DNA of 64,000 nt from an uncultured Prolixibacteraceae bacterium. GTDB taxonomy: Bacteria; Bacteroidota; Bacteroidia; Bacteroidales; FEN-979. Shown piece by piece: positions 6,841 through 58,968 of the stretch (position 1 is the stretch's first letter; the number at the start of each line of letters is the position of its first letter). The position numbers and the translations under genes were made by a program. Location: contig CAYVVG010000012.1 in assembly GCA_964455285.1 (NCBI GenBank), forward strand, positions 672 through 64,671, read 5' to 3'. The notes beneath the pieces are model-generated. The model made no database searches. It was given only the letters and a program-made list of their open reading frames with translations, and was not told where the DNA came from.

Positions 6841-8828
6841 TGTACAATGTTCACAACACCTTTAAATACCACGTCCCCACTGGTGATGATATCCTGTCCC
6901 GGAAAACTGATCTTGACCACCCAGATGTAACTTTCCGGAGGACACACCTGTCCTCCCGCTTTGCCGTCCCACCCTTTATCCACATCATCCGATTCAAAGA
7001 CCATCTGCCCCCACCGGTCAAAGATCACCATGCTGAAGTTAATGTTACGGTACAAGCCGTTGACGCGGAACACATCGTTCAGCCCGTCGCCGTTGGGAGA
7101 AAAAGCATTAGGGATAAAATACTCGAAAACTTTTACATACGTTGTGTCGGAATGGGTGCAGCAATAAACGTCTTTCACCCTGGCCCAGTACGATCCCTGG
7201 GTCCCCGCCACAATGGTGGATGCGGCAGAACCCGTTGACCAGAGGTACTCCGGGAAACCCTCGCCCGCATGGAGGGTAATGGTTGAGCCTGTGTACAGCA
7301 ATACGGTATCCTCCAGTGTTATGAAGGGTTTCGGATGACTGACCACCCTGACGGAGTCGGTAAAAGACTGACCTTCATAAGTCAGGGTGAGTCTTACTGT
7401 ATACTGCCCGGGTGTTGAAAAAGGATGCATGGGATCCGGAAGGGACGAGGTGGCACCATCGCCAAAATCCCACGAAACTGCATCGATGTTCGCCGGATTG
7501 GTAATGCGGAACCGTGTGACATCCCCTTCGCAAACACTGTCCCAGGTGAAGGGAGGGAGATAGAGGTAGCTCTGCACCAGGTTCGGCAGGCTGTAAATGC
7601 TCTTTCTCCCCAGCAAATCGAAGCGCACTCCCGGATTATGGTCCAGCCTGTTGAGATTACAGGCCGATCCCGGCCGGTCGGGGTTGTAGATCACCTCGAG
7701 GGAATCTCTCTTTATCTTGAGATTGTTGGTCCGGCTGATGTATATCCGGCCGTCGGGGGCCAGTTGCAGGGCGTTCCACCGAACATTGGCAGCCGAATCG
7801 ATGATGACGGGGTTCGTCAGCCCGTTGTTCAGGTCGAACTGGTAAAGACAGGTTGGCTTCTTTGGGACCGTTCCTCCCAGGTAATCAAGAACGGAAGCAT
7901 ACAACATCCGTCCGCTGGGAGAAAATTCGATCCCGTAAGGATGGATATCCGGTTTGTTCACCACGTAGCTCCGCGGGTTGGATACCCGGCCGGTCTCATT
8001 GTCGAAATCGAACAGTTCGATCCGCTTGTCGTAGGTAATCGACAACGCCAGCCTGGTCCCGTCGGGAGAGCACTTCATGTATCCTACCATGTTGTTGCGA
8101 GCCAGCTTGGTGGATGCGGAATGGCGGGTTCCGACCGCGCTTACGGTCGAGTCGACGATTCCCGATCCGGTGACCAGGTAAGCATGGAATTCGTCGGACT
8201 CCCACTTATGGGCGATGACCCAGATGCCGGTCTTGCTGTGGTTGGCCACTGCAGTCAGTTTCTGGCAGGAAGGGGTGACCAGGGGCAAATTGAGAACGGA
8301 TGATACGGCATCGCCGAGCCCGTTCCGCTCCCGCATGTCGATGATGGAGTACCGGAGTCCCTGGGTCGTGTATTTCGTTGAGTCGAGCAGATCATACCGG
8401 ACCATGTCGACCGTAAAAACCATGTACTGCGATTCCTCCCTGCCCATCGGCACGATGAGGCAGGGCTGGGTGACTCCCGGATCGCCCGCCAGCCCGGTCC
8501 CGTTCGGCATCGGAGAGAACGTCGTATCCCAAACGACCTTTCCGTTCGTAAAAAAACGGAAATTGCCCACGCTGTCGCAAACCGAGGCCGTCGCCTGGAA
8601 AGCGTTCATCAGATTCCCGTCGGCTAACGGAACTGCTTGCCCGCTCCTGAAATCGATGCCCGCCTTTTCGCCGAAGTACCATACCATGGCCTGTTTCTGC
8701 GAGCGGGGGCAATTGCTCCGGGTCCATGTTCCCTGGGCTGCGGCGGGTGCGGCCGGGATCAGGAACGCTAAGCAAGTTAGGACCAGGGCGGTGTAGGCCG
8801 GCAACCGGTATTTTTGCTTGGAAGACAC
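6837..8828 (-). CDS. Secreted beta-propeller/PKD protein with T9SS type B (gliding-motility-associated) C-terminal domain
   Basis: Signal peptide, WYFGEKAGIDF start, propeller-like repeats (SPDG, FSPSG), PKD motif WDFGDG, CTD IPNAFSPNGDGLNDVF...FDRWG...WDG. Confidence 0.85.
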   Translation of the reverse strand: MSSKQKYRLPAYTALVLTCLAFLIPAAPAAAQGTWTRSNCPRSQKQAMVWYFGEKAGIDFRSGQAVPLADGNLMNAFQATASVCDSVGNFRFFTNGKVVWDTTFSPMPNGTGLAGDPGVTQPCLIVPMGREESQYMVFTVDMVRYDLLDSTKYTTQGLRYSIIDMRERNGLGDAVSSVLNLPLVTPSCQKLTAVANHSKTGIWVIAHKWESDEFHAYLVTGSGIVDSTVSAVGTRHSASTKLARNNMVGYMKCSPDGTRLALSITYDKRIELFDFDNETGRVSNPRSYVVNKPDIHPYGIEFSPSGRMLYASVLDYLGGTVPKKPTCLYQFDLNNGLTNPVIIDSAANVRWNALQLAPDGRIYISRTNNLKIKRDSLEVIYNPDRPGSACNLNRLDHNPGVRFDLLGRKSIYSLPNLVQSYLYLPPFTWDSVCEGDVTRFRITNPANIDAVSWDFGDGATSSLPDPMHPFSTPGQYTVRLTLTYEGQSFTDSVRVVSHPKPFITLEDTVLLYTGSTITLHAGEGFPEYLWSTGSAASTIVAGTQGSYWARVKDVYCCTHSDTTYVKVFEYFIPNAFSPNGDGLNDVFRVNGLYRNINFSMVIFDRWGQMVFESDDVDKGWDGKAGGQVCPPESYIWVVKISFPGQDIITSGDVVFKGVVNIVQ

Positions 8829-16891: not shown

Positions 16892-18553
16892 ATGAAATCC
16901 AAACTGATCATGATGATGATGCTGGTTGCCACCGTGGCTTTCTGCCTCTCCGGTTGCAACCGACGCGGAAGCGGCCCGGGAGCAGGCAACCCCGGCGATT
17001 CCCTCCTGCGTGCCAGGATCGGCGAGTTTGCTCAGGTCACGCTGAAAACCGATCTTTCCAACCTGACGGAAAAGGAAAAACAGATGATCCCGCTGCTGAT
17101 CGAGGTCGCAAAGATCATGGATGACCTTTACTGGGAACAGGTGATCGGCGACAAGCACGCATTCCTTGACACCATCCGCGACTCACTGGCCAGGGTTTTC
17201 GCGGGAATCAACTACGGTCCCTGGGAAAGGCTGAACGGCAACCAGTCTTTTATTGCCGGCATCGGTGAGAAACCGGCCGGGGCCAATTTCTACCCGCCCG
17301 ACATGACGAAGGAAGAATTTGAAGCCTGGAACGAGAAATCGAAGACCAGCCTGTATTCAGTGATCCGTCGCAACGATGACCGCACCCTGAAAAACATCAT
17401 GTACAGCGAGGTCTACCGTGTGAAGCTGGAGAAAGCGGCGCAGTTGCTTGAACAAGCGTCCGTACTTGCCGAAGACGAGGGTCTGAAAAAGTATCTTTCG
17501 CTGCGGGCCAAAGCCCTGGTCACCGACGATTATTTTGCCAGCGACATGGCCTGGATGGAGATGAAGAACAACACGATCGACTTCGTGGTCGGGCCGATCG
17601 AAAACTACGAGGATGAACTTTTCGGATACAAAACCGCCTTCGAGGCCGCCCTGCTCATCAAAGACAAGGAGTGGAGCGGGAAGCTGGCAAAATTTGCAAA
17701 ATTCCTTCCCGAACTCCAGGCAAAACTTCCCGTGGAGGAGAAATACAAAACGGAGAAACCCGGCACCGATTCCGACCTGAACGCGTACGACATCATTTAT
17801 GTGGCCGGTCATTCCAATGCCGGAAGCAAGACAATTGCCATTAACCTGCCGAATGACGAGAAGGTGCAGATGGCCAAAGGCTCGCGGCGCCTCCAGCTGA
17901 AAAACGCCATGCGGGCAAAATTCGATCACATTCTGGTGCCCATCTCCCAGGTCCTGATCGATCCCGGGCAGCAATCTCAGATCAAATTCGATGCCTTTTT
18001 CTCCAACGTGATGTTCCATGAAGTGGCCCACGGGCTGGGGATCAAGAAAACCCTCACCGGCAAGGGAACGGTGCGGGAAGCGCTGAAGGAGAAATACTCG
18101 TCGTTCGAAGAGGCGAAAGCCGACATCCTGGGATTATTCATGACGACCCAGCTGATCGAAAAGGGGGAAGTGACCGGGATCACGGCCGAAGACTGCTTCG
18201 TCACTTACATGGCAGGGCTGATCCGTTCGGTCCGTTTCGGGGCGGCCAGTGCACACGGCAAAGCGAACATGATGTGTTTCAACTTCTTTGAAACAAAGGG
18301 CGCCTTTGAGCGCAGCACCACCGGAACCTACCGGGTCAACATGGAGAAAACACGCCTGGCCATGAACGAATGGGCGGCAATGGTCCTTCATTTCGAGGGT
18401 GACGGCGATTACAAAGGAGCATCCGATTACCTGGAGGCCAACGGAAAGATCGGCGAAGGCCTTAAAGAGGACCTTGCACGGCTCAGGACCGCCAACATCC
18501 CGGTTGACATTGTGTATGAGCAGGGGCCGGAAGTGCTCGGACTCGTCAACTAA
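16892..18553 (+). CDS. Peptidase M49 (dipeptidyl-peptidase III-like) Zn-dependent lipoprotein
   Basis: Lipobox LSGC, GANFYP, GPIENYED, zinc motif FHEVAHG, second motif EEAKAD. Confidence 0.85.
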   Translation: MKSKLIMMMMLVATVAFCLSGCNRRGSGPGAGNPGDSLLRARIGEFAQVTLKTDLSNLTEKEKQMIPLLIEVAKIMDDLYWEQVIGDKHAFLDTIRDSLARVFAGINYGPWERLNGNQSFIAGIGEKPAGANFYPPDMTKEEFEAWNEKSKTSLYSVIRRNDDRTLKNIMYSEVYRVKLEKAAQLLEQASVLAEDEGLKKYLSLRAKALVTDDYFASDMAWMEMKNNTIDFVVGPIENYEDELFGYKTAFEAALLIKDKEWSGKLAKFAKFLPELQAKLPVEEKYKTEKPGTDSDLNAYDIIYVAGHSNAGSKTIAINLPNDEKVQMAKGSRRLQLKNAMRAKFDHILVPISQVLIDPGQQSQIKFDAFFSNVMFHEVAHGLGIKKTLTGKGTVREALKEKYSSFEEAKADILGLFMTTQLIEKGEVTGITAEDCFVTYMAGLIRSVRFGAASAHGKANMMCFNFFETKGAFERSTTGTYRVNMEKTRLAMNEWAAMVLHFEGDGDYKGASDYLEANGKIGEGLKEDLARLRTANIPVDIVYEQGPEVLGLVN

Positions 18554-18585
18554 CCCATTCCGCCCCTGTTCCAGGGGAATTTTCT

Positions 18586-18620
18586 GCGATCCCCGGGCCT
18601 CATCCCCGGGGATCGCTTTT
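18586..18620 (+). terminator. Intrinsic terminator hairpin at the convergent M49/dnaE junction
   Basis: 12-bp perfect stem GCGATCCCCGGG/CCCGGGGATCGC followed by TTTT. It overlaps the dnaE stop codon. Confidence 0.7.
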
Positions 18621-21600
18621 TAACGGCATCTTGGCCATTTTATCCACTTCCAGGCTGGGAAACCCGAATTCCTCCACAATTTTACCCCCCACGAGGTAGA
18701 TCCCGTCGCCCCGGAATGGATAAGCAGTCACCGTTTTCGGAAAGTGCACCGTATCGAAGAAACGCCCGTTCACATCGATGAAAGTCCCGAAGTGCATCCA
18801 CTCTTTCCTCACGGTACGCACATACTTGATCGTGACCAGCAAACCCAGCATGCGCACCTTCTTCCCGATGTGATCACTCATCTCATGGGCCAGAATATCG
18901 CCCCGGAACTTCGTTTCGAGAAGTTCAAAATAGGAATGGGTGACCGGGAAACCTAGCAGTTCGATCTCATCGTACACGTCGGCGAGAAGGTTTTGCTCCA
19001 GCACAGGCAGTTCGAACCTTTTGGCGGGGGGGGCGGGGAAAAGTGACGCGTGACGGGTGACGCTCGTCCGCTCGTCCGCTCGTCCGCTCGTCCGCTTGTC
19101 CGCTCGTCCGCTCGTCCGCTTGTCCGCTTGTCCGCTCGTCCGCTCGCCCGCTCGCCCGCTTGTCCGCTCGCCCGCCCCGACCAGCATATGCGCTTCCCAG
19201 AGCAGCACGGCCTTAGGTTTCCCGGTGAAACGGAACGCCCCGACCCTGATTAGAATGATCAGCTGATCCAGCGTAACGGGCACCCTGCTTACGAAATCCT
19301 CCAGGTCCTTATACAATTTTTCCTTCCTTCCATTCCGATCGTCGATCGTACATCGCAGATCGCAGATCGCCCTTCCCACCTCCGCTTCCAGGTTGTTCAC
19401 ATGGATAAACCCCAGGAAGATATCGGTTCCCCGGATGGAGGTCTTGTATTCGCTCCGGTTCACACAGGGTGCATGCAGCCGGCCCCCCGACACCCGGGCC
19501 TCGTTGAAGTACACCCAGGAAGCATAGAAGCCCCCGAAATTATTGATCACACCGGTGATGAACTCCAGGGGGAAATGGGCCTTGAGGTAGAGGCTCTGGT
19601 AGCTTTCGACGGCGTAGGAGGCGGAATGAGCCTTGGAGAAGGAGTATCCGGCGAACGATTCGATCTGCCTCCACACTTCGCGGGTCACCTCTTCGGGGTA
19701 GCCGAACTCGCGGCAGTTCGCGAAGAACTTGTCGATGATGCGCTGCAACTCTTTTTTCGAACGGTATTTACCGCTCATGGCCCGCCGGATCACGTCGGCA
19801 TCGGCCAGGTCGAGGCCGGCAAAGTGGTGGCAGATCTTCAGTACATCCTCCTGGTAAACCATCACCCCGAAGGTCTCCTTCAGTTGTTCCTCCATCACGG
19901 GGTGCAGATAGGTAAAGCGGCCGGGATTGTGGAACCGCAGGATATACTCCTTCATCATGCCCGAACGCGCCACCCCCGGCCGGATGATCGAACTGGCGGC
20001 CACCAGGGTGCGGTAGTTGTCGCACTGCAGCTTTTTCAGCAGGCCGCGCATGGCCGGGCTTTCGACATAAAAGCAGCCGATGGTGCGGGCGCTCCGCAAC
20101 TGTTCTTTAACCTGCTCATCCTCCTTGAACGCCCGCACACGGTGCACGTCGATCGCAATGCCCCGGTTTTTCCTGACCAGCTCGGCTGCTTCATAGATGT
20201 GTCCGATCCCCCGCTGACTGAGGATGTCGAGCTTCTCGAAGCCGATGTCCTCGGCAGTGTACATGTCGAACTGCGTGGTGGGGAATCCCTTGGGGGGCAG
20301 GTCCAGCGCCGTGTAGCAGGTGACGGGCTCTTCGGAGATCAGCACCCCGCCGGCATGGATGCTGCGCAGGTTGGGAAAGTCCGCCATCCTCTCCCCGAGT
20401 TCGCTGATCTTCCGGATGATGTGGTTCTTATGAATGGCCTCATCCGGCGACTTCAGGAAGGAATCGATCTCTCCCTTGGGGAGCCCGTGCACCTTCCCCA
20501 GCTCGCGGTAGATCGACTTGTCGCGGAAGGTCGACATGGCGCCGAGCAGGGCCGTATGCCGCCGCCCGTACCGTTTAAAGATGTAGTCGATCACCTCGTC
20601 GCGCTCTTTCCACGAATAGTCGATGTCGAAATCGGGCGGCGAAGTGCGTTTGGGGTTGATGAAACGCTCGAAGTAAAGGTCGAGCTCGATGGGATCCACA
20701 TCGGTGATCCTCAGGCAGTAGGCCACAATGCTGTTGGCCCCGCTTCCCCGGCCGACATGGTAGAATCCTCTCGACATCGAGTAGCGGATGATGTCCCACG
20801 TGATCAGGAAATAGGCGGCAAAACCCATCCGGTCGATGATATCGAGTTCGTGCCTGACCCGGCTGAGGGCCCCGGCATTCCCGTCGCCATAGCGGTAGAT
20901 CAGTCCGTCCATGGCCAGCTTGCCGAGCAGGACACGGTCGTCGTAAGGGTCACCGGTAAAGGTCTTCCGGTTCTTGCAGCTTTTAAAATCGAAACCGATG
21001 GAGCAGGCCTCCGCCAAACGTTCGGTATTCGACACGATCTCAGGAAATTCACGGGTGGCTCTCCGCCAGTCCTCCGCCGGGTGCATCACCTCGTCGGGCG
21101 AGGCCACCTGGCCGGGGATCAACCGGCTCAGCAACATGTTATGGGCCACCGCCCTGAAATTACGGTGAAGCTCGTAATCCTGCATGGTCCGGAAGGTGAC
21201 CGGCGCCATGATCACCATCCGGGGGATCAGGTCGCGATACCGGGAAAGAACCAGCGGCGTGAGTTCCGAGGGAAGGAGACCGATGAAGGATTGACGATTG
21301 ACGATTGACGATTGACGATTGACGGGTTTCGCCATTTCGCCATTTCGCCATTTCGCCATTTCGCCATTTCGCAACGGGTAGATAAAAAAAACATGCTCCA
21401 ATTCGGGAGCCCGGTCGGGCAGCGGGAGACCGTTCAGGTTGTGGTGGCTCAGAAATTCGTTCAACTCCCGGAAACCCTCGTTGTTTTGCGCCAGCCCGGT
21501 GTAAAGCAGCCTGTCCTCCTGCCTGAATTCAATCCCCGCGATAGGCCTGATGCCCTTCTCCATGCATACCGATACAAACTCCATCATCCCCGTAGAGTTA

Positions 21601-21716
21601 TTGATATCGGTCAGCGCCAGCACCTTCACCCCGCTCTTCACCGCCTCGTCGGCCAGCCCCTCCACCGAAAGGGTGCCGTAACGAAGGGAGTACCAGGAGT
21701 GACAGTTGAGATACAT
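18600..21716 (-). CDS. dnaE: DNA polymerase III alpha subunit, secondary/error-prone (DnaE2-like) type, with repeat-derived insertions
   Basis: PHP domain (CHSWYS, LTDIN), GRGSGANS, catalytic PDFDID, SFSKAHSASY, C-terminal OB region. Linked to dinB and a LexA-like gene. Confidence 0.92.
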   Translation of the reverse strand: MYLNCHSWYSLRYGTLSVEGLADEAVKSGVKVLALTDINNSTGMMEFVSVCMEKGIRPIAGIEFRQEDRLLYTGLAQNNEGFRELNEFLSHHNLNGLPLPDRAPELEHVFFIYPLRNGEMAKWRNGEMAKPVNRQSSIVNRQSFIGLLPSELTPLVLSRYRDLIPRMVIMAPVTFRTMQDYELHRNFRAVAHNMLLSRLIPGQVASPDEVMHPAEDWRRATREFPEIVSNTERLAEACSIGFDFKSCKNRKTFTGDPYDDRVLLGKLAMDGLIYRYGDGNAGALSRVRHELDIIDRMGFAAYFLITWDIIRYSMSRGFYHVGRGSGANSIVAYCLRITDVDPIELDLYFERFINPKRTSPPDFDIDYSWKERDEVIDYIFKRYGRRHTALLGAMSTFRDKSIYRELGKVHGLPKGEIDSFLKSPDEAIHKNHIIRKISELGERMADFPNLRSIHAGGVLISEEPVTCYTALDLPPKGFPTTQFDMYTAEDIGFEKLDILSQRGIGHIYEAAELVRKNRGIAIDVHRVRAFKEDEQVKEQLRSARTIGCFYVESPAMRGLLKKLQCDNYRTLVAASSIIRPGVARSGMMKEYILRFHNPGRFTYLHPVMEEQLKETFGVMVYQEDVLKICHHFAGLDLADADVIRRAMSGKYRSKKELQRIIDKFFANCREFGYPEEVTREVWRQIESFAGYSFSKAHSASYAVESYQSLYLKAHFPLEFITGVINNFGGFYASWVYFNEARVSGGRLHAPCVNRSEYKTSIRGTDIFLGFIHVNNLEAEVGRAICDLRCTIDDRNGRKEKLYKDLEDFVSRVPVTLDQLIILIRVGAFRFTGKPKAVLLWEAHMLVGAGERTSGRAGERTSGQADKRTSGRADKRTSGRADERTSVTRHASLFPAPPAKRFELPVLEQNLLADVYDEIELLGFPVTHSYFELLETKFRGDILAHEMSDHIGKKVRMLGLLVTIKYVRTVRKEWMHFGTFIDVNGRFFDTVHFPKTVTAYPFRGDGIYLVGGKIVEEFGFPSLEVDKMAKMPLKSDPRG
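19043..19173. repeat. In-frame tandem repeat in dnaE: about 3x GTGACG(C/G), then 14x octamer GCT(C/T)G(T/C)CC
   Basis: Counted directly; octamers span 19062-19173. They translate as (ERTSGRAD/ADKRTSGR)n. Confidence 0.95.
19336..19370. repeat. Degenerate 5x heptamer (CGATCGT/AGATCGC) inside dnaE
   Basis: cgatcgt cgatcgt acatcgc agatcgc agatcgc, read directly. Confidence 0.6.
21289..21374. repeat. In-frame compound repeat in dnaE: 5x GATTGAC plus 5x TTTCGCCA (and one variant)
   Basis: Perfect heptamers at 21289-21323 and perfect octamers at 21327-21366. They translate as RNGEMAKWRNGEMAKPVNRQSSIVNRQS. Confidence 0.95.
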
Positions 21717-21788
21717 GGCGAGGTAGCGAAATGGTGAAATAGCGAAATGGCGAAATGGCGAAATGGCGAAATAGCGAGGTAGTGAAAA
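21717..21788. repeat. 9x octamer (A/G)G(C/T)GA(A/G)(A/G)T abutting the dnaE start codon
   Basis: ggcgaggt agcgaaat ggtgaaat agcgaaat ggcgaaat x3 agcgaggt agtgaaaa. Confidence 0.92.
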
Positions 21789-21791
21789 TTA

Positions 21792-21831
21792 TGATTAGTT
21801 TTTAGTCATATTTCGGGTTATAATATAATCA
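21792..21831. promoter_or_regulatory. Tandem putative LexA-like operators upstream of dnaE (TGATTA-N5-TAGTCA; GGGTTA-N5-TAATCA)
   Basis: Same palindrome and same 23-bp offset as the pair upstream of dinB/lexA. Confidence 0.7.
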
Positions 21832-21883
21832 TTTTTCGGATGTAAAATTCCTGCTTATATAATTATATTTGCAGGAAATCGTC

Positions 21884-23380
21884 ATGGCTGGTCTTGTGAA
21901 ACTGTTCGAGCAAAAAACTCCCCGGATCTATTTCCTGGGCGCCGTCGTATTCCTGATGACTGCCTGGTTCTCGACGGGATACAACCACTTCGACGAGCAC
22001 TTCCAGGTGATCGAATTCGCGGGGCTGAAACTCGGTCTCACCGAAGCGGCGAACCTGCCCTGGGAGTACGGCTGCATGATGCGCCCGGCGATCCAGCCGC
22101 TGGCGGTGGTGGTGCTTTACCGGGCAGCCGGACTGGCCGGCATTTCCGACCCGTTTCTGATCGCTTTCATCATCCGGCTTTTCGCAGCCCTGCTTACCTT
22201 CTGGTCGATCCACCTGGTCATCCGGTTGTATTCGCCCGGCCTGCACAATCCCTGTCTTCGCCATGTGCTGCTGCTGCTCTCCTTTTTCCTCTGGTTCATC
22301 CCGTACAATGCCGCCCGTTTCGCCTCCGAGACGATGGCCGGCCGTATCTTCCTGGTCGGCATGGCCCTCCTGTTCCTCCGGCGGGAGCAGCGGGCGGGCG
22401 ACCATCTTCTCAACGGGCTGATCCTGGGACTCGCCTTCGTGTTCCGGTATCAGGCGGGATTCATGATCGCCGGCTATTTTGCCTGGATGGCCCTGGTGCG
22501 GCGAACGGGATTCCGGAATCTCGCTTCCTTTGCAGCCGGGATCCTGCTGTCGGTTGGCGCAGGGATCGTCATCGACCGTTGGTTTTACGGCCGGTGGGTG
22601 TTTACCTCCTGGAACTACTTCGCCCAGAACCTGGTGGAAGGCAAAGCGGCCACCTTTGGAACCAGTCCCTGGTGGTACTATATCGAACAAACCTTGGTCA
22701 ACGCCTTCCCGCCGCTGAGCCTGGTCCTGGTGGCTGCCGTGTTCCTGTACTTCATCCTGTTCCCGAAAGATATCATTACCTGGACCCTGGTGCCCTTCCT
22801 GGCGGTCCATTTTCTGATCCCGCACAAAGAGATCCGTTTCCTGTTCCCGGTTATCGGGTTTCTGCCGGTCATGATCGTCCGCACACTGGATCTCCTGGCC
22901 GAAAGATACCCTTCTGCCCGGCCGGAGCGACGGCCCTTCCGGGTGTCAGCGAAAATATTCTGGTTCCTCAACACGATCATGCTGGTGATCCTTGTCTTCC
23001 GGCCGGCCGACGACGGGATCGCCCTCTTTAAAACCCTGTGGGACCGTTATGACCGGCCGGCCCGGCTCTGTTACACCGGCGACAACCCTTATCACCGGGC
23101 AAAGGTTGACGTTCACTTTTACAAGCGGAAGAGCTTGGTGCTGCAGCAGGTGGATTCGGTGAACCGGATCCGGCCCGTGAGGGACACGGTAACGCTGGTG
23201 GTAACCTCCCGGCCCCTTGTCATGACCGGCACCTCCTCCGGGGCTGAGCTGGTTTATTCCACCTACCCGGCGTGGGTCCGGCGATTCAACATCAACCACT
23301 GGCTCGACCGCACCAGTTTCTGGCATGTTTACGAGATAAAACCCGTTACTCCTTCACCCGGCAGTCATGAAACGGAATGA
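21884..23380 (+). CDS. GT-C fold glycosyltransferase, Alg9/PIG-B (GT22)-like mannosyltransferase
   Basis: HFDEHFQVIE, LPWEYG, IPHKEIRFLFP motifs, more than 10 TM helices. ATG 21884 follows TATATTTG (21864-21871). Confidence 0.8.
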   Translation: MAGLVKLFEQKTPRIYFLGAVVFLMTAWFSTGYNHFDEHFQVIEFAGLKLGLTEAANLPWEYGCMMRPAIQPLAVVVLYRAAGLAGISDPFLIAFIIRLFAALLTFWSIHLVIRLYSPGLHNPCLRHVLLLLSFFLWFIPYNAARFASETMAGRIFLVGMALLFLRREQRAGDHLLNGLILGLAFVFRYQAGFMIAGYFAWMALVRRTGFRNLASFAAGILLSVGAGIVIDRWFYGRWVFTSWNYFAQNLVEGKAATFGTSPWWYYIEQTLVNAFPPLSLVLVAAVFLYFILFPKDIITWTLVPFLAVHFLIPHKEIRFLFPVIGFLPVMIVRTLDLLAERYPSARPERRPFRVSAKIFWFLNTIMLVILVFRPADDGIALFKTLWDRYDRPARLCYTGDNPYHRAKVDVHFYKRKSLVLQQVDSVNRIRPVRDTVTLVVTSRPLVMTGTSSGAELVYSTYPAWVRRFNINHWLDRTSFWHVYEIKPVTPSPGSHETE

Positions 23381-24551
23381 GTACTTCAACGGTTTCACCC
23401 TGTTCGTTGCGCTGGCATGCCTGCTCAACCTGGTGATGAACCTGATCAACCACCGCTTTCACCCGGGCGATTTCCAGGTATATTACAGCGCGGCGGAACA
23501 GCTTGTGTCGGGAGATCCTGTATATATGGTATCCTTTTACACCGGCAGCGGGTATTACAAATACAGTCCCGTCATCCTCCTGTTCTTTCTGCCTTATCTT
23601 CCCTTCCCGCTGTTCACTGCCTCCGTTCTCCATTTCCTGGTGCAGAGTGTTGCCTTCTATCTGACTTTCCGGGTGATCCGCCGGATCCTTCAGGACTTTT
23701 TCTCCTATCCCGCAGGGGGTCGGGGGAACCTGCTGCTGACACTTTCCTTCGCGGGCATCCTGATACACCTCACGCGGGAACTGTACGTGGGCAACATCAA
23801 CATCCTGCTGCTGCTTCTCACGTTGCTTTCACTGCAGATGTTCCTTGAGGGGAGAGAGAGGCCTGGCGGCATCCTTGCCGGCATTGCCCTCCTGGCCAAA
23901 CCCTACCTGGCGATCCTGCTGCTGCCTATGGTGATGCGGGGAAGGTGGAAAGCGACCGGATGGGCGGCTGCGACCGTCCTGGCCGGGTTGCTTCTGCCCT
24001 TCCTCTACCCGGGCCCTGTGAGGGCGGCCGAACTGTACTCGGGCTGGTACCGAACACTCACCATGCACGCAGGAGGATTCCCCGGCATGACCTCGGTCGA
24101 CTACCTGGCCGCGCGGTACATCGCCGGATGGCCCTCCTATGGCAATCTGCTGATATTCTTGCTGCTCATGGCGTTGGCCGTGGTTTTCATCCGCGGCAAC
24201 ATCCGGATTGAAAGAACGGACGTCAACCCGGACCGGGCCAACGCAAATGCCGCCTTCGAATGGTTTCTGCTGGCTGCACTGATCCCCAACCTGATCAAAA
24301 CCGACTGGGTATTGCTGTTGTTCAGCGCCCCGCTGATCGCCTTCATGGTGTTCACGGTCGCCGCCCGGAAAAGCTACGGCTGGATCCCGGTGCTGGTGGT
24401 CCTCCTCTTCTTTTATGGCGCCAATTCCGACGACCTTCTCGGGCGGGAGCTTTCGCGGAAGATCCTCCATTCGGGGCTGATGGGACTCGCCAATTTCCTC
24501 CTGGTGATCGTGGCGGCGGTCATGTACCGGACCGTCAGAATAAGATCGTAG
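23367..24551 (+). CDS. GT87/DUF2029 family membrane glycosyltransferase
   Basis: GDFQVYYSAA...L..G..VY, YKYSPV, GNINILL, ALLAKPY motifs; polytopic. Overlaps the upstream gene. Confidence 0.8.
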   Translation: MKRNEYFNGFTLFVALACLLNLVMNLINHRFHPGDFQVYYSAAEQLVSGDPVYMVSFYTGSGYYKYSPVILLFFLPYLPFPLFTASVLHFLVQSVAFYLTFRVIRRILQDFFSYPAGGRGNLLLTLSFAGILIHLTRELYVGNINILLLLLTLLSLQMFLEGRERPGGILAGIALLAKPYLAILLLPMVMRGRWKATGWAAATVLAGLLLPFLYPGPVRAAELYSGWYRTLTMHAGGFPGMTSVDYLAARYIAGWPSYGNLLIFLLLMALAVVFIRGNIRIERTDVNPDRANANAAFEWFLLAALIPNLIKTDWVLLLFSAPLIAFMVFTVAARKSYGWIPVLVVLLFFYGANSDDLLGRELSRKILHSGLMGLANFLLVIVAAVMYRTVRIRS

Positions 24552-24557
24552 TTGCCG

Positions 24558-24579
24558 CCCGTCACCCGTCACCCCTTCA
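24558..24579. repeat. Short GTGACGG-family repeat at the dinB stop codon
   Basis: cccgtca cccgtca ccccttca. The TGA of dinB lies inside the repeat. Confidence 0.6.
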
Positions 24580-25720
24580 CCCCCACCCCTCTCATCACCA
24601 CCTTCTGCCCGTACTTTCGCCGGATCCGGTCGAGGGCCTGGTAGAGGTTCACCATTCCGGCATTGTCGTCGAACAGGTTGAGTTGCGGGTTGCCGGAGAT
24701 GAGGTTGCTGAAGCGCACCCCGATGAGCCGGATCAGCATGCGCCGCTGGTAGAGCCGGTCGAAGAGGCTTTTCACCAGGGGGATGAGCTCATGGTCGAAG
24801 GCGGTATAGGGAACGCGCTGCTGCAGGGTGTGGGTGTCGAAGTTTGAGTAGCGGATCTTGACCGTGACGCAGGAGGTAAGTTTCTGTTTGTCGCGCAGTT
24901 CGAAAGATATCTTCTCAACCATCTTCACCAGGATCTCCTTCATCCGGACGATGTCGATGCTGTCCTGCTCGAAGGTATTTTCGGTACTGACCGATTTGGC
25001 TTCGTGCCAGGGGTAGACGGGGGTGGGGTCGATGCCGTTGGCCTTTTCCCAGATCACGATGCCGTTTTTCCCCATCACCCGTTCCATCATGTCGGGCGGG
25101 ATGCGGCGGAGGGTGTCGATGGTCACCACCCCCATCGAGCGCAGGAGCCGGTAGGTCTTCTCCCCGATCATGGGTATCTTGCGGATCGACAGGGGGGCCA
25201 GGAAGGGATCCACCGCCCCGCGCTCCACGTACAGTTCACCGTTGGGCTTGGCTTCGCCCGTGGCGATCTTCGACACCGTTTTATTCACGGAGAGTCCGAA
25301 AGAGATGGGCAACCCGGTGTTGCGGATGATCGCCTCCCGCAGTTCATGGGTCCATTGCCGGATCCCGAAGAAGCGGTCCATGCCGGTGATGTCGATATAG
25401 TGCTCGTCGATGGAGGCTTTCTCATAGAGAGGCGCCTTTTCGGCGATGATCTCCGTAACGGTGTCGGAGTATTTCGAGTAGAGCTCCATGTCGCCCCGCA
25501 CCAGGATGGCGTCGCCGCAGAGGGCGCGTGCCATCTTCACCGGCATGGCCGAGTGGACGCCGAACTTCCGCGCCTCGTAGCTGCAGCTGGCCACCACTCC
25601 CCGGTCGGAGGTGCCGCCGATGATCACCGGCTTGCCGACCAGTTCGGGGCGGAGCAGGCGTTCGACCGAAACGAAGAAGGTGTCGAGGTCGAGGTGAACG
25701 ATATTTCGGGAGGAGGACAC
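24569..25720 (-). CDS. dinB: DNA polymerase IV (Y family)
   Basis: HLDLDTFFVSVE, SCSYEARKFGV, SIDEHYID, SVNKTVSKIA, KIRYSNF. GTG start. Confidence 0.95.
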   Translation of the reverse strand: MSSSRNIVHLDLDTFFVSVERLLRPELVGKPVIIGGTSDRGVVASCSYEARKFGVHSAMPVKMARALCGDAILVRGDMELYSKYSDTVTEIIAEKAPLYEKASIDEHYIDITGMDRFFGIRQWTHELREAIIRNTGLPISFGLSVNKTVSKIATGEAKPNGELYVERGAVDPFLAPLSIRKIPMIGEKTYRLLRSMGVVTIDTLRRIPPDMMERVMGKNGIVIWEKANGIDPTPVYPWHEAKSVSTENTFEQDSIDIVRMKEILVKMVEKISFELRDKQKLTSCVTVKIRYSNFDTHTLQQRVPYTAFDHELIPLVKSLFDRLYQRRMLIRLIGVRFSNLISGNPQLNLFDDNAGMVNLYQALDRIRRKYGQKVVMRGVGVKG

Positions 25721-25752
25721 AAATAGTGAAATAGCGAAATAGTGAAATGGTG
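25721..25752. repeat. 4x octamer AAAT(A/G)G(T/C)G abutting the dinB start codon
   Basis: aaatagtg aaatagcg aaatagtg aaatggtg. Same family and same position as the tract before dnaE. Confidence 0.85.
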
Positions 25753-25756
25753 AATT

Positions 25757-25796
25757 TGATTATTTTTTAATCATTTTGCCGATTACAATATAATCA
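25757..25796. promoter_or_regulatory. Tandem putative LexA-like operators between divergent dinB and lexA-like genes (TGATTA-N5-TAATCA; CGATTA-N5-TAATCA)
   Basis: Perfect palindrome at 25757-25773 and a 1-mismatch copy at 25780-25796, directly upstream of TATATTTG (25798-25805). Confidence 0.8.
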
Positions 25797-25829
25797 TTAT
25801 ATTTGCAACAACCCATTTATTTTTTCGCC

Positions 25830-26633
25830 ATGTTTTTCAGCAGCAACATCAAATTTCTGCGGAAGCGCCGGGGGCGCACGCAGGACGACGTGGCCGCGGC
25901 CCTCGGGATGAAGCGGTCCACGCTGAGCGGGTATGAGAACAACATCGCCCAGCCTGGGTTCGGGGCGCTGGTCGCCTTCTCGAACTATTTCAACACCGCC
26001 ATCGACACCCTGATCCGGGTCGACCTGGCTTCCATCGCCGAGAGCCAGGTGCGCCAGCTGGAGAGGGGTTATGACGTATTTCTCAGGGGGTCGAACCTGC
26101 GCATCCTGACCACCACCGTTGGCCCCGACAACGAAGACAACATCGAGCTGGTTTCGGAGAAGGCCAAGGCCGGGTACACCAGCGGGTTTGCCGACCCGGA
26201 ATACATCAGCATCCTGCCCACCTTCCGCCTGCCCTTCCTATCGAAACAGAAAAAGTACCGCACCTTCCAGGTCAGCGGCGACTCCATGCTGCCCATCCCC
26301 CACGGCGCCTGGGTCACCGGGGTCTTTGTTCAGGACTGGAACACGATCCGCAACCGCGACGCCTACATCATCCTGACCATGGATGAGGGAGTCGTATTTA
26401 AAGTGGTGGAGAACCGGATCACGGCGGAGGGGAAACTGGTGCTCCACTCGCTGAACCCGGTGTATGAGCCGTATGACATCCGCACAACCGACATCCGCGA
26501 GATCTGGCAGTTCGTTCACTTTATAAGCCCGAAGCTGCCCGAGAACCCCGGCTCGGAAAATTACCACCTGGTGGAAACGGTCCGGCAGTTGCGCGACGAC
26601 ATCCGCGTGATCCAGACAAAACTGAACATCTGA
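25830..26633 (+). CDS. LexA-like repressor: XRE-type HTH plus S24 autopeptidase
   Basis: NIKFLRKRRGRTQDDVA HTH, Ala-Gly site KAKAGY, Ser nucleophile GDSMLP, Lys in VVFKVV. Divergent from dinB. Confidence 0.88.
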   Translation: MFFSSNIKFLRKRRGRTQDDVAAALGMKRSTLSGYENNIAQPGFGALVAFSNYFNTAIDTLIRVDLASIAESQVRQLERGYDVFLRGSNLRILTTTVGPDNEDNIELVSEKAKAGYTSGFADPEYISILPTFRLPFLSKQKKYRTFQVSGDSMLPIPHGAWVTGVFVQDWNTIRNRDAYIILTMDEGVVFKVVENRITAEGKLVLHSLNPVYEPYDIRTTDIREIWQFVHFISPKLPENPGSENYHLVETVRQLRDDIRVIQTKLNI

Positions 26634-26705
26634 GCAGCACAGCCCGGGCAGGATGAAATATTTTCCTACTTTTGTTGTTGATATACCAACAAAAACTGCC
26701 AGATC

Positions 26706-28031
26706 ATGAAAGTTGCCATCGTGGGATCGGGGTATGTCGGGCTGGTCACCGGCACCTGCTTCGCCGAAGTAGGGATCGAGGTCACCTGCGTCGATATCGA
26801 CAAGCAAAAGATCGAAAACCTCAACAAAGGCATCATCCCCATCTATGAACCGGGTCTCGAGGAGATGGTTCACCGGAATATGAAAAAGGAACGGCTCCAT
26901 TTCACCACCGATATCGCGCAGGCGCTGAAGGGTTGTGAAGTGATCTTCAGTGCCGTTGGAACCCCGCCCGACGAAGACGGCAGCGCCGACCTGCAGTATG
27001 TGATCAGCGTGGCCCGTGACTGCGGACGTCACATGCAGGATTACCTGCTCATCGTGACCAAGAGCACCGTTCCGGTCGGAACCGCCGAAGCAGTGCGGAA
27101 GGCGGTCAGGGAGGAGCTCGATATCCGGGGGGTGAATATCCCCTTCGACGTGGCCTCCAACCCGGAATTCCTGAAGGAAGGCGCCGCCATCGACGATTTC
27201 CTGAAACCCGACCGGATCGTGATCGGATGCGATTCGCCCCGTGCCGAAGAGCTGATGAAGGCACTCTACAAACCCTTTACACTGAACGGCCATCCTATTA
27301 TCTTCATGGACATCACTTCGGCTGAAATGACGAAGTATGCCGCCAACTCCATGCTGGCCACCAAGATCAGCTTCATGAACGACATTGCCAACCTGTGCGA
27401 GATCGTGGGCGCCGACATCAACAAGGTGCGGAAGGGAATCGGGTCCGACAGCCGCATCGGCAACAAGTTCATCTACCCCGGGGTCGGATACGGAGGATCC
27501 TGCTTCCCCAAGGATGTTAAAGCACTGATCAAGACGGCAAAAGACTACCATTACCCGTTGCGTGTGCTGACCGCGGTGGAGGAGGTGAACGAAGACCAGA
27601 AATCGGTGCTCTTCCGGAAGTTCCTGAAACATTTCGGGGGCGATGTGGCAGGGAAGACAGTAGCCGTATGGGGCCTTTCGTTCAAGCCGCAAACCGACGA
27701 CATGCGCGAAGCTCCATCCCTTGTGATCATCCGAAGCCTTCTCGAGGCAGGAGTCAGAGTAAAAGCGTACGACCCGGTCGCCATGAACGAGACCCGGCGC
27801 ATCCTGGGAGAGGTGATTGAATATGCACCCGACCCGTACGACGCCCTGACCGGGGCCGACTGCCTGATGCTGATCACGGAATGGCCCGAGTTCAAAGTTC
27901 CCAATTTCACCCTTATCAAAGAGCTTTTGAAAAACCCGGTTGTGTTCGACGGCAGGAATATTTACGGGATCGAAACCATGAAACGCGACGGGTTCACTTA
28001 CTATTGCATCGGCGTGGACACGACAAAATAA
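26706..28031 (+). CDS. ugd: UDP-glucose 6-dehydrogenase
   Basis: [41 protein letters not shown] at 26667-26674. Confidence 0.95.
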
Positions 28032-28991: not shown

Positions 28992-29875
28992 CCGAAACGA
29001 ATAGTCGCCGGGTAATCCTCGTAGCGGGTGCCGACGGACAGCTCGGGAACGAACTGAGGGTGCTCGCACCGATGCATCCGGGAATGGAGTTTCATTTCAC
29101 GGATGTCGGAGAACTGGATATCACCAGCGAGACGGCCGTCATGGCCATGACCGGTCGGCTCCGGCCATCGGTGATCATTAACTGCGCTGCCTATACTGCC
29201 GTCGACAAAGCCGAACAGGACGAGGAGAGAGCCACCCTGCTCAATGGCACTGCCCCCGGCATCCTGGCACGCGCGGCCGGTATGACAGGGGCGCTGCTGA
29301 TCCATGTCTCGACCGACTACGTGTTCGACGGCCGGGCCTGCACTCCCTATGCGGAAGATCACCCGGTTGCCCCGGCATCGGCTTACGGGCGCAGCAAGCT
29401 GATCGGCGAACAGCAGGTCAGGGTCCACGCCAGCCAGGCCATCATCCTTCGCACCTCCTGGCTCTATTCGTCGTTCGGACACAATTTCGTCAGGACGATG
29501 ATGAAGTATGGCAGAGAAAGGGGAAGTTTGCGGGTGGTGTTCGACCAGGCGGGCTCCCCGACCTATGCCCGCGACCTTGCTTCCGCCATCCTGCAAATCG
29601 TCGAATCCGGCCGGCCCGTCGAGGGTACGGAGGTTTTCCATTATGCCAATGAAGGCGTGGCAAGCTGGTATGATTTTGCCCTTGCCATCCTGGAGACAGG
29701 TGAGATCCCATGCATCGTGACCCCCATCCTCACCCGAGATTATCCCCTTCCCGCCGCAAGGCCGGCGTACAGCGTATTCGACAAAGCAAAGATCAAGGAG
29801 CGTTTCGGGATCCAAATACCCTACTGGAGAGATAGTTTGAAGGATTGTATGCGGGTGATAGGGGAAGAGCGATGA
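28988..29875 (+). CDS. rfbD: dTDP-4-dehydrorhamnose reductase
   Basis: [39 protein letters not shown]. Confidence 0.93.
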
Positions 29876-29938
29876 GATTGAAGATTGAAGATTGAAGATT
29901 GAAGATTGAAGATTGAAGATTGAAGATTGAAGAATTGA
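29875..29938. repeat. 8x perfect heptamer AGATTGA (plus one variant) between rfbD and pgm
   Basis: Counted directly at 29875-29930; begins at the last base of the rfbD stop codon. Confidence 0.95.
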
Positions 29939-56617: not shown

Positions 56618-57481
56618 ATGAGGCAGCTTAAAATTACCAAGCAGGTTACCAACCGTGAAACTGCATCGCTCGACAAGTACCTGCAGGAGATCGGGAAAGT
56701 GGAACTGATCACCGCCGACGAAGAGGTGTCGCTCGCCCAGAGGATCAAACAGGGCGATATGGCAGCCCTGGAAAAGCTTACCAAGGCCAACCTCCGCTTC
56801 GTCGTTTCGGTATCCAAGCAGTACCAGAACCAGGGCCTGAGCCTCCCCGACCTGATCAACGAAGGAAACCTCGGACTGATCAAAGCAGCCCAGCGTTTCG
56901 ACGAAACACGCGGGTTTAAATTCATCTCCTATGCCGTTTGGTGGATCCGCCAGTCGATTCTCCAGGCGCTGGCCGAACAATCGCGCATCGTACGTCTTCC
57001 GCTGAACAAGATCGGCTCGATCAACAAGATCAACAAAGCCTACGCCCAACTGGAACAGAAATACGAACGGGAACCCAACGCGGGAGAGATTGCATTCCTG
57101 CTGGAAGTATCTGAAAACGAGGTTAAAGAGTCGATGCGCAACTCGGGAAGGCATGTCTCCATGGATGCCCCCCTGGTCCAGGACGAGGACAACACCATGT
57201 ACGACGTCCTTCGCAGCGAAGAGAACACCACCCCCGACAACGGCCTGCTGTACGAGTCACTTAAAAAAGAGATTGAACGAGCCGTTTCCACGCTCACACA
57301 GCGGGAAGCCGACGTAGTTCGCCTGTACTTCGGGCTGAATGGAAGTCATCCCATGACCCTCGAAGAAATTGGCGAAAAGTTTGACCTCACCCGCGAACGG
57401 GTCCGGCAGATCAAGGAAAAAGCCATCCGGCGGCTCAAGCACACGTCAAGGAGCAAGATTCTGAAGACTTATCTGGGGTGA
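56618..57481 (+). CDS. rpoD: Primary RNA polymerase sigma factor, RpoD/SigA family (short Bacteroidota type)
   Basis: [57 protein letters not shown]. No region 1.1. Confidence 0.95.
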
Positions 57482-57533
57482 CGGCGTGACGGTGTGACGA
57501 CGTGACAGCGTGACGGCGTGACGGCGTGACGAA
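57478..57533. repeat. 7x octamer GTGAC(G/A)(G/A)(C/T) starting at the rpoD stop codon
   Basis: gtgacggc gtgacggt gtgacgac gtgacagc gtgacggc gtgacggc gtgacgaa. Confidence 0.92.
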
Positions 57534-58865: not shown

Positions 58866-58880
58866 CGGGCCGGAGTAAAA

Positions 58881-58968
58881 GCGGACTAGCGGACTAGCGG
58901 ACAAGCGGACTAGCGGACTAGCGGACAAGCGGACTAGCGGACTAGCGGACAAGCGGACTAGCGGACAG
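58881..58968. repeat. 11x octamer GCGGAC(T/A)A with 24-bp higher-order period
   Basis: Unit endings run (TA,TA,AA)x3, then TA, AG. Counted directly. Confidence 0.95.

Follow-up and report, generated by a model that had tools for sequence, protein, structure and literature searches.

The 64,000-nucleotide stretch of DNA analyzed here (the window; GenBank assembly GCA_964455285.1, contig CAYVVG010000012.1, positions 672 to 64,671, with positions below counted from its first base) comes from an uncultured Prolixibacteraceae bacterium and carries two closely similar pairs of tandem palindromic boxes, one between dinB and a gene for a LexA-like repressor and the other in front of a dnaE-family gene (Table 1). 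An earlier reading of the letters alone, called the original prediction below, had taken these pairs for SOS operators, and comparison with Pfam and NCBIfam bears out the gene context that it described, namely dinB, the lexA-like gene and the DnaE-family gene. The predicted GTG start codon of dinB lies 36 bp from box 1, and the dnaE ATG (21716) lies 75 bp from box 1′ (21792). The DnaE-family protein scores below the NCBIfam cutoffs both for replicative DnaE and for the error-prone DnaE2, and is probably a DnaE2-like partner of dinB.

Table 1. Features around the two tandem box pairs, in window coordinates.
Feature	Position	Strand	Details
dnaE-family polymerase gene, short (1038 aa)	18600-21716	-	Pfam PHP, DNA_pol3_alpha, finger, HHH_6
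8-bp tandem array, dnaE leader	21715-21777	-	GAAATGGC, eight copies as read on the + strand; 63 bp, between box 1′ and ATG
Box 1′, dnaE pair	21792-21808	strandless	TGATTAGTTTTTAGTCA; 1 mismatch
Box 2′, dnaE pair	21815-21831	strandless	GGGTTATAATATAATCA; 2 mismatches, both in the left arm
Glycosyltransferase genes GT22 and GT87	21884-24551	+	Pfam; GT22 21884-23380, GT87 23367-24551; between dinB and dnaE
dinB, DNA polymerase IV (383 aa)	24569-25720	-	Pfam IMS, IMS_C, IMS_HHH; NCBIfam PRK02406, 280.7 bits (above the cutoff of 256)
8-bp tandem array, dinB leader	25720-25754	-	GAAATAGY, four copies as read on the + strand; between box 1 and start codon
Box 1, dinB/lexA-like pair	25757-25773	strandless	TGATTATTTTTTAATCA; 0 mismatches, perfect palindrome; dinB-proximal, lexA-like-distal
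Gap between boxes	25774-25779	+	6 bp; TTTG at 25775-25778, candidate -33 element of the lexA-like promoter
Box 2, dinB/lexA-like pair	25780-25796	strandless	CGATTACAATATAATCA; 1 mismatch
Candidate -7 element of the lexA-like promoter	25798-25805	+	TATATTTG, match to TAnnTTTG; begins 2 bp past box 2
XRE-HTH + S24 LexA-type repressor gene (267 aa)	25830-26633	+	Pfam HTH_3 and Peptidase_S24

The consensus of the four boxes, TGATTA-N5-TAATCA, is a 17-bp palindrome, and at two mismatches or fewer the 64 kb hold these four boxes and no others. The box starts given in the original prediction (25757, 25780, 21792 and 21815) stand, as do its second-box spacers, CAATA in the dinB/lexA-like pair and TAATA in the dnaE pair; its motif holds as a consensus but is matched exactly by only one box of the four (0, 1, 1 and 2 mismatches, in the order of the starts just given). 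The offset is 23 bp in both pairs (17-bp boxes, 6-bp gap), the two modules are identical at 33 of 40 bases across the boxes, and they share one layout of 8-mer array, box 1, 6-bp gap and box 2. The count of single boxes is weak by itself, with four seen against 1.2 expected and eight of 100 shuffles reaching four. For pairs 22-25 bp apart, the window has two, compared with none in 200 simulations of the whole window and none in 2000 Markov simulations of its AT-rich fraction (37% GC); chance does not explain the tandem pairing of the boxes.

A protein-based scan with one genome per species yielded 80 loci whose proteins are 43-94% identical to the window repressor, from 'Bacteroidales', Prolixibacteraceae and Draconibacterium metagenome-assembled genomes (MAGs) and from Flavobacteriales (Crocinitomicaceae, Cryomorphaceae). 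In 67 non-redundant upstream regions, chosen by protein homology only, we counted all 5-mer dyads whose spacers measured 0-15 bp, with no pattern imposed. The top dyad was GATTA-N5-TAATC, found in 35 of the 67 regions as opposed to 0.04 in shuffles, and the junction between neighboring boxes, TAATC-N8/9-GATTA, also ranked high, so that the phylogenetic footprinting proposed with the original prediction recovers its motif. Across species the box arms are kept while the box-1 spacers vary, a 17-mer identical to CGATTACAATATAATCA is present in many orthologous promoters, and box 2 of the functional-looking dinB/lexA-like pair is imperfect in most species. Among 40 pairs the offset was 23 bp at 21 loci and 24 bp at 19, with no other value; the identical 23-bp spacing that had first drawn comment is therefore real but reflects a family-wide constraint to 23 or 24 bp. 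Over 472 kb of related loci, nearly all matches with at most one mismatch fell upstream of a lexA-like gene, a displaced dinB or a split-off dnaE, with a single stray match. The motif is kept down to 43% protein identity, from Prolixibacteraceae-like MAGs to Flavobacteriales; it is widespread, contrary to the lineage-specific box originally proposed. The statement in the published survey of these repressors that Bacteroidales lack them (PMC8565304; Sanchez-Osuna et al. 2021) is not contradicted, because Prolixibacteraceae are placed in Marinilabiliales in the NCBI taxonomy.

A scan of metagenome contigs for the exact pattern of the tandem pair, made blind to genes, returned at least 120 loci. 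Among the matches listed, a lexA-like, dinB or dnaE gene starts no more than 350 bp downstream of the pair at 101 of 120, which upholds the predicted enrichment at DNA-damage genes, and the pair lies directly upstream of an orthologue of the window repressor at 91 of 120 (median distance 11 bp). The other 19 listed loci include four with a lexA-like, dinB or dnaE gene 0.5-1 kb away and five that are low-complexity GATTAAT repeats. Also among these 19, one tandem pair abuts the gene for an SOS-response-associated peptidase (SRAP; L085, 2858-2897), and another stands 10 bp from an S24-only UmuD-like gene (L174, 515-554); judged by these positions, the regulons of other genomes are predicted to extend to SRAP and the UmuD-like gene.

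Phage contigs from IMG/VR (L204 at 7261-7300, L206, L207, L208, L202 and L086) also bear this tandem pair, 2 bp upstream of a gene whose product, a conserved hydrophobic protein of 83 aa, contains a CPKC motif. Neither Pfam nor PHROGs has a match for this product, and no LexA-like gene is present on the phage fragments that bear the pair; the 83-aa phage gene may be wired to the host repressor. Most phage open reading frames (ORFs) adjoining the pair likewise match nothing in Pfam or PHROGs, and at L201 the 425-aa neighbor of the pair is a phage portal protein. At L133 (3607-3849) a 22/23-bp unit, TGATTATGGTATAATCAGTTTTA, is repeated head to tail some ten times, which strings together operator-like boxes at their natural spacing.

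The protein encoded beside the dinB pair has a helix-turn-helix (HTH) of the XRE/CI type (Pfam HTH_3, residues 7-60, E = 3e-13), and the LexA winged-helix domain (LexA_DNA_bind, PF01726) has no Pfam match in it. Its putative cleavage site, Ala114-Gly115 (KAKA114-G115Y), and its dyad of Ser152 (GDS152M) and Lys191 (VFK191) align with the family and with Escherichia coli LexA in the alignment of PMC8565304, and all four residues are invariant across 37 homologues. Aligned over 236 aa, the window protein shares 42% identity (E = 1e-64) with P0121, a full-length Pontibacter actiniarum protein whose C-terminus is 100% identical to that of WP_025606010.1. Compared with the C-terminal sequences in Data S5 of PMC8565304, its C-terminal domain shows 42-46% identity (E ~1e-46) with the group that recognizes CTAA-N5-TTAG (the CTAA group) and 31-36% with the group that recognizes GGA-N5-TCC (the GGA group), and its close homologues are named 'LexA family transcriptional regulator' by NCBI. 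By sequence, then, the window protein belongs to the non-canonical LexA family of Bacteroidota and stands nearest the CTAA group. The original prediction of a non-canonical XRE-S24 LexA is thereby confirmed at the level of domains and homology, and its proposal of autoregulation together with control of dinB and dnaE draws support from footprinting, the gene-blind scan and homology to a validated non-canonical LexA.

A search of the PDB by sequence found XRE-type HTH relatives only (best matches ImmR of ICEBs1, CylR2 and HipB) and no solved structure of this repressor family. The AlphaFold2 (AF2) model, built from the 37-sequence alignment, is usable for the HTH bundle and the C-terminal helix only. 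It has a five-helix N-terminal bundle with a predicted local distance difference test (pLDDT) score of 82-89 and a C-terminal helix at residues 240-264, for which mean pLDDT is 82 over residues 251-260, 74 over 261-267 and 58 over 241-250, with values below 50 up to residue 243. In alignments, the helix segment falls on the C-terminal helix region of P0121 and of the Data S5 sequences; an extra C-terminal helix that LexA and CI lack has been described for the family (PMC8565304). The recognition helix, KRSTLSGYEN, does not vary in close homologues and hardly varies across the clade that retains the motif, while a CTAA-type protein reads KRSLVGAYEE at the same position. Such a difference fits co-divergence of recognition helix and operator within one family, and which residues of the helix may be responsible we can only infer.

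Synteny across relatives gives an ancestral layout in which the lexA-like gene is divergent from a dinB-dnaE operon, and dnaE is the second gene of that operon in most relatives. The GT22 and GT87 genes split the ancestral operon in the window lineage and also at L002, L003, L004, L005, L014 and L066. A dnaE gene with its own pair is found in the window and at L007, L012, L013, L045, L090, L093, L101 and L105; the intervening or neighboring genes are mutually unrelated (GT22/GT87, an Omp28/type IX secretion system cargo gene, AAA_14-DUF4143 and DUF3307), and the pair therefore follows dnaE and not its neighbor. Separated dnaE pairs have 0 mismatches in box 1 and 1 in box 2 at L007, 0 and 1 mismatches at L045, and 0 mismatches in box 1 at L012 and L013; intact pairs at separated dnaE genes in independent lineages therefore indicate selection for dnaE control. 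The window copy retains both right arms and the box-2 spacer, and the module of array, box 1 and box 2 recurs with dnaE in several lineages. The GT22 gene has a TATATTTG -7 box of its own at 21864-21871, 32 bp past box 2′. On the other side of the locus, a UDP-glucose 6-dehydrogenase gene (26706-28031) begins 72 bp after the lexA-like gene, a synteny kept in most relatives at 74-94% identity.

The Bacteroidetes promoter consensus consists of TTTG at -33 and TAnnTTTG at -7. Since TTTG lies in the gap between the boxes and TATATTTG follows box 2, box 2 fills the spacer of the repressor's own predicted promoter; the TTTG of the gap is not strictly kept among relatives. In 131 unique lexA-like upstream regions, TAnnTTTG overlaps the distal box (as TAnnTT-TGATTA) in 86; in another 21 it begins 2 bp past the proximal box, which is the window's arrangement. 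The two layouts combined amount to 107. Both layouts would put the repressor on core promoter elements. At L001-L006, L008, L010, L014 and L016 the TAnnTTTG box has moved upstream of box 1, and at L002 an inserted promoter-like segment appears to have forced the box-1 arms apart.

The 8-bp arrays between the boxes and the start codons belong to a larger set. The dinB-leader arrays occupy the same place in many relatives, and within 49 related loci with symmetric 3-kb flanks there were 28 arrays on the dinB/dnaE side and one on the other; 17 of the 28 lie at dinB gene edges and four inside dnaE. The unit sequence depends on lineage (GAAATAGC, GCTACTTA, CCAACTTA, GCTACCTC) and the period of 8 is kept. 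Arrays of 7-8 bp units in the window cluster around the polymerase genes, also at 21327-21372, 21289-21324, 19061-19175 and 24558-24602, with further ones at 29875-29938, 57478-57531 and 58880-58966. Those inside dnaE (19061-19175 and 21289-21372) are in-frame, lineage-specific insertions in two variable linkers, one following the PHP domain and the other the HhH domain, and at these points the DnaE proteins of relatives have low-complexity inserts of their own, which differ in length.

The dnaE leader array and an array within the ORF form a 49-nt inverted repeat (21327-21375 and 21723-21771; 94% complementary, 347 nt between the arms) whose arms bracket the start codon together with the first ~115 codons. 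The predicted mRNA fold contains one long helix, at -205 kcal/mol compared with -169 +/- 5.8 kcal/mol for shuffled sequences (z = -6.3). Similar inverted arrays surround dinB at L005 and L014. Complementarity of at least 16 nt between leader and trailer arrays was considered as a general mechanism and rejected, with 10 of 98 dinB loci showing it compared with 5 of 291 permuted pairs. No Rfam family matched within 18000-27000, and a search of the literature on 8-bp tandem arrays in Bacteroidota turned up nothing useful.

Overall, we consider it likely from these sequence comparisons that the XRE-HTH/S24 repressor encoded at 25830-26633 uses the boxes as its operators and would control itself, dinB and dnaE. 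In the undamaged cell, one repressor dimer would sit on each 17-bp palindrome, and the two dimers would probably cooperate across the 6-bp gap (23 bp center to center), as at adjacent lambda CI operators; by this analogy, cooperative binding of two dimers is plausible. The pair at 25757-25796 would span -33 to -7 of the repressor's promoter and so give autorepression, and the same pair, 36 bp from the dinB start codon, would repress dinB. The second, weaker pair, 75 bp upstream of dnaE, would act on a gene that two glycosyltransferase genes have cut from the dinB operon. Upon DNA damage, RecA-stimulated self-cleavage at Ala114-Gly115 by Ser152/Lys191 would derepress the polymerase genes, and the conserved residues make RecA-dependent cleavage at that site plausible. 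The computations show that the sites exist, are conserved and are tied almost exclusively to these genes, and that the protein belongs to the family; physical binding, cooperativity, cleavage and damage induction are steps that we infer.

Several observations weigh against this interpretation. Many of the closest full-length relatives, at 80-85% protein identity, have degenerate left arms in both boxes (L001-L006, L008, L010, L014 and L016) with an unchanged recognition helix; in examples such as TGCCAT-N5-TAATCA and CGACGA-N5-TAATCA (CGACGA-TAATA-TAATCA) only the right half-site is left, and either the full palindrome is dispensable there or control has been loosened. The dnaE pair of the window is more degenerate (1 and 2 mismatches) and scores lower in a position weight matrix (PWM), at 25.2 bits (21792) and 15.4 bits (21815) compared with 33.2 bits (25757) and 21.3 bits (25780), the next window site reaching 8.1 bits; this PWM was built from pattern-selected sites, which makes the information content of its arms circular. 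No dinB-sense or dnaE-sense promoter was identified, TAnnTTTG being present in few dinB leaders only, and repression there may act through either occlusion or a roadblock. For the S24 domain the AF2 model is of low quality, with pLDDT below 50 there and an overall mean of 57.8.

The weaker scores of the dnaE boxes, along with their distance of 75 bp from the ATG behind a 63-bp array, would suit a situation in which only the dinB/lexA pair works and the dnaE copy is a decaying duplicate of little or no effect, leaving dnaE constitutive or otherwise controlled. We regard this as unlikely, given the separated dnaE genes with intact pairs in independent lineages (L007, L045, L012, L013), the preserved right arms and box-2 spacer of the window copy, and the imperfect box 2 of most species anyway. 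It is quite unlikely that the boxes are bound by some other regulator, whether a paralogous non-canonical LexA from another part of the genome or an unrelated transcription factor. The window covers only ~64 kb of the genome and contains no second repressor paralogue, Marinilabiliales genomes are labeled with two L2-type paralogues in the published survey (PMC8565304), and at L042, L043, L054, L061 and L073 the pair is at dinB while the lexA-like gene lies 1-1.4 kb off and is boxless within 300 bp upstream. Nevertheless, the pair co-occurs with the repressor family from 43% to 100% identity, with an invariant recognition helix, 91 of the 120 listed pairs lie directly upstream of a repressor orthologue, and members of this family are as a rule autoregulated (PMC8565304).

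A switch that answers a signal other than DNA damage, or that works without RecA, for example a domesticated phage-type immunity repressor, appears very unlikely. The XRE/CI type of the N-terminal domain and its PDB matches to ImmR, CylR2 and HipB would suit such an origin, as would the presence of the same tandem pair on nine viral contigs, but the genes under control belong to the classic SOS set (dinB and dnaE in the window, SRAP and umuD-like genes in other genomes), neither the Ala-Gly site nor the Ser/Lys dyad varies, and for homologues with 42% identity both induction by mitomycin C and binding to SOS promoters have been described (PMC8565304). We give virtually no credence to the idea that the boxes are chance AT-rich palindromes or mere promoter elements of AT-rich intergenic DNA. 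An AT-rich motif beside a -7 box in such DNA, with a single-box count that is not significant alone, does invite it; against this stand the absence of any pair from the 2000 AT-rich simulations, the dyad in 35 of 67 upstream regions where 0.04 were expected, the retention of the arms while box-1 spacers vary, and the retention of the pair in two promoter architectures.

The repressor family was already known, and what is new is the TGATTA-N5-TAATCA motif, which was not found in the literature in the notations searched and is neither defined nor analyzed in PMC8565304. That paper gave the first description of the Bacteroidota SOS response in 2021, with two operator motifs and one validated divergent motif; the present work adds a further well-supported motif, used by a large and mostly uncultured set of Bacteroidia, that would govern a pair of error-prone polymerases. 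It offers a defined sequence from which damage-inducible mutagenesis could be predicted in Bacteroidia of environmental and host-associated origin, as well as a natural example of operator and recognition-helix co-divergence (KRSTLSGYEN with TGATTA compared with KRSLVGAYEE with CTAA), and the strict 23/24-bp tandem geometry makes lambda-like cooperativity directly testable. The general picture is unchanged, as the published model of paralogue-driven motif divergence already predicted such variants. A bolder interpretation, which we hold to be possible but rather doubtful, is that this is a third major specificity class of non-canonical LexA, with an insulated mutagenesis-only circuit, lambda-style dimers and a portable array-operator cassette. 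If so, the circuit would comprise the repressor itself, dinB, the DnaE2-like polymerase and sometimes SRAP or umuD, and the changed helix and operator would insulate it from the CTAA-type SOS regulon of the same genomes. The operator pair and the 8-bp repeat leader would then travel together, restoring control when dnaE or dinB is relocated, and the repeats, with their 49-nt long-range duplex around the dnaE start codon, might add a post-transcriptional layer of control.

Compared with known systems, the predicted repressor shares with canonical LexA a self-cleaving S24 design, autoregulation and repression of translesion synthesis (TLS) polymerases, but has an XRE-type DNA-binding domain where LexA has a winged HTH; the only PDB chain named LexA that matches is 2kpj, via the N-terminal HTH region (E = 0.007). 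The lambda OR and OL regions contain 17-bp operators separated by 6-7 bp (23-24 bp center to center) that are bound cooperatively in pairs. Lambda CI is thus alike in operator length and spacing and in the fusion of a CI-like HTH to a self-cleaving S24 domain. It differs in having no detectable similarity in the C-terminal domain (E = 2.3), in lacking the extra C-terminal helix, and in serving as a lysogeny switch where the window protein would be a chromosomal regulator of polymerase genes.

Among the non-canonical LexA proteins of Bacteroidota, GGA-N5-TCC is used mainly by Flavobacteriaceae and CTAA-N5-TTAG is widespread (PMC8565304). The original prediction had named GGA-N5-TCC as the operator for most of these proteins; the nearest known group instead uses CTAA-N5-TTAG, the widespread motif. 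Like the system described here, the GGA ('L1') group, represented by Salegentibacter agarivorans WP_075324850.1, controls dinB and often a dinB-dnaE operon, the ancestral layout here, but its C-terminal domains are only 31-36% identical to that of the window protein. GGA-N5-TCC has 38 matches in the window compared with 31 expected, none of them in 21717-21883 or 25721-25829.

The CTAA ('L2') group, with P. actiniarum WP_025606010.1 validated by electrophoretic mobility shift assay (EMSA), has the same XRE HTH, S24 domain with Ala-Gly site and Ser/Lys dyad, and C-terminal helix; it also has a dyad-N5-dyad operator in the repressor's own promoter, commonly several sites per promoter, and TLS polymerases in its regulon. 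It differs in its half-sites, CTAA/TTAG compared with (TG)ATTA/TAAT(CA) here, which coincide at two of four core positions each; the conserved arms here are 6 bp long. It differs further in its recognition helix (KRSLVGAYEE compared with KRSTLSGYEN) and in its broad published SOS regulon, the one here being small (lexA-like, dinB, dnaE). CTAA-N5-TTAG is absent from both promoter regions of the window, where its lone match, at 8768, lies within a GC-rich ORF.

An L2 paralogue of Elizabethkingia anophelis (WP_078407279.1), whose diverged motif TTAC-N5-GTAA was validated by EMSA (PMC8565304), is alike in keeping the dyad-N5-dyad form with a changed half-site and in being divergent from an error-prone polymerase gene; its half-site differs from that of TGATTA-N5-TAATCA. 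The same paper also contains two relevant sequences from Draconibacterium: Table S10 gives ACTA-TAATT-TAGT for a regulator of Draconibacterium sp. M1 without a CTAA motif, and of the two D. orientale DinB/UmuC promoters in Data S4, one has the sequence TGACTAAATTATAGTCG and the other a CTAA-like site. Both ACTA-TAATT-TAGT and TGACTAAATTATAGTCG are one-base-per-arm variants of TGATTA-N5-TAATCA, and the same TGACTA and TAGTCA arms occur among the related loci examined here, which suggests a two-paralogue, two-motif arrangement in the Draconibacterium group.

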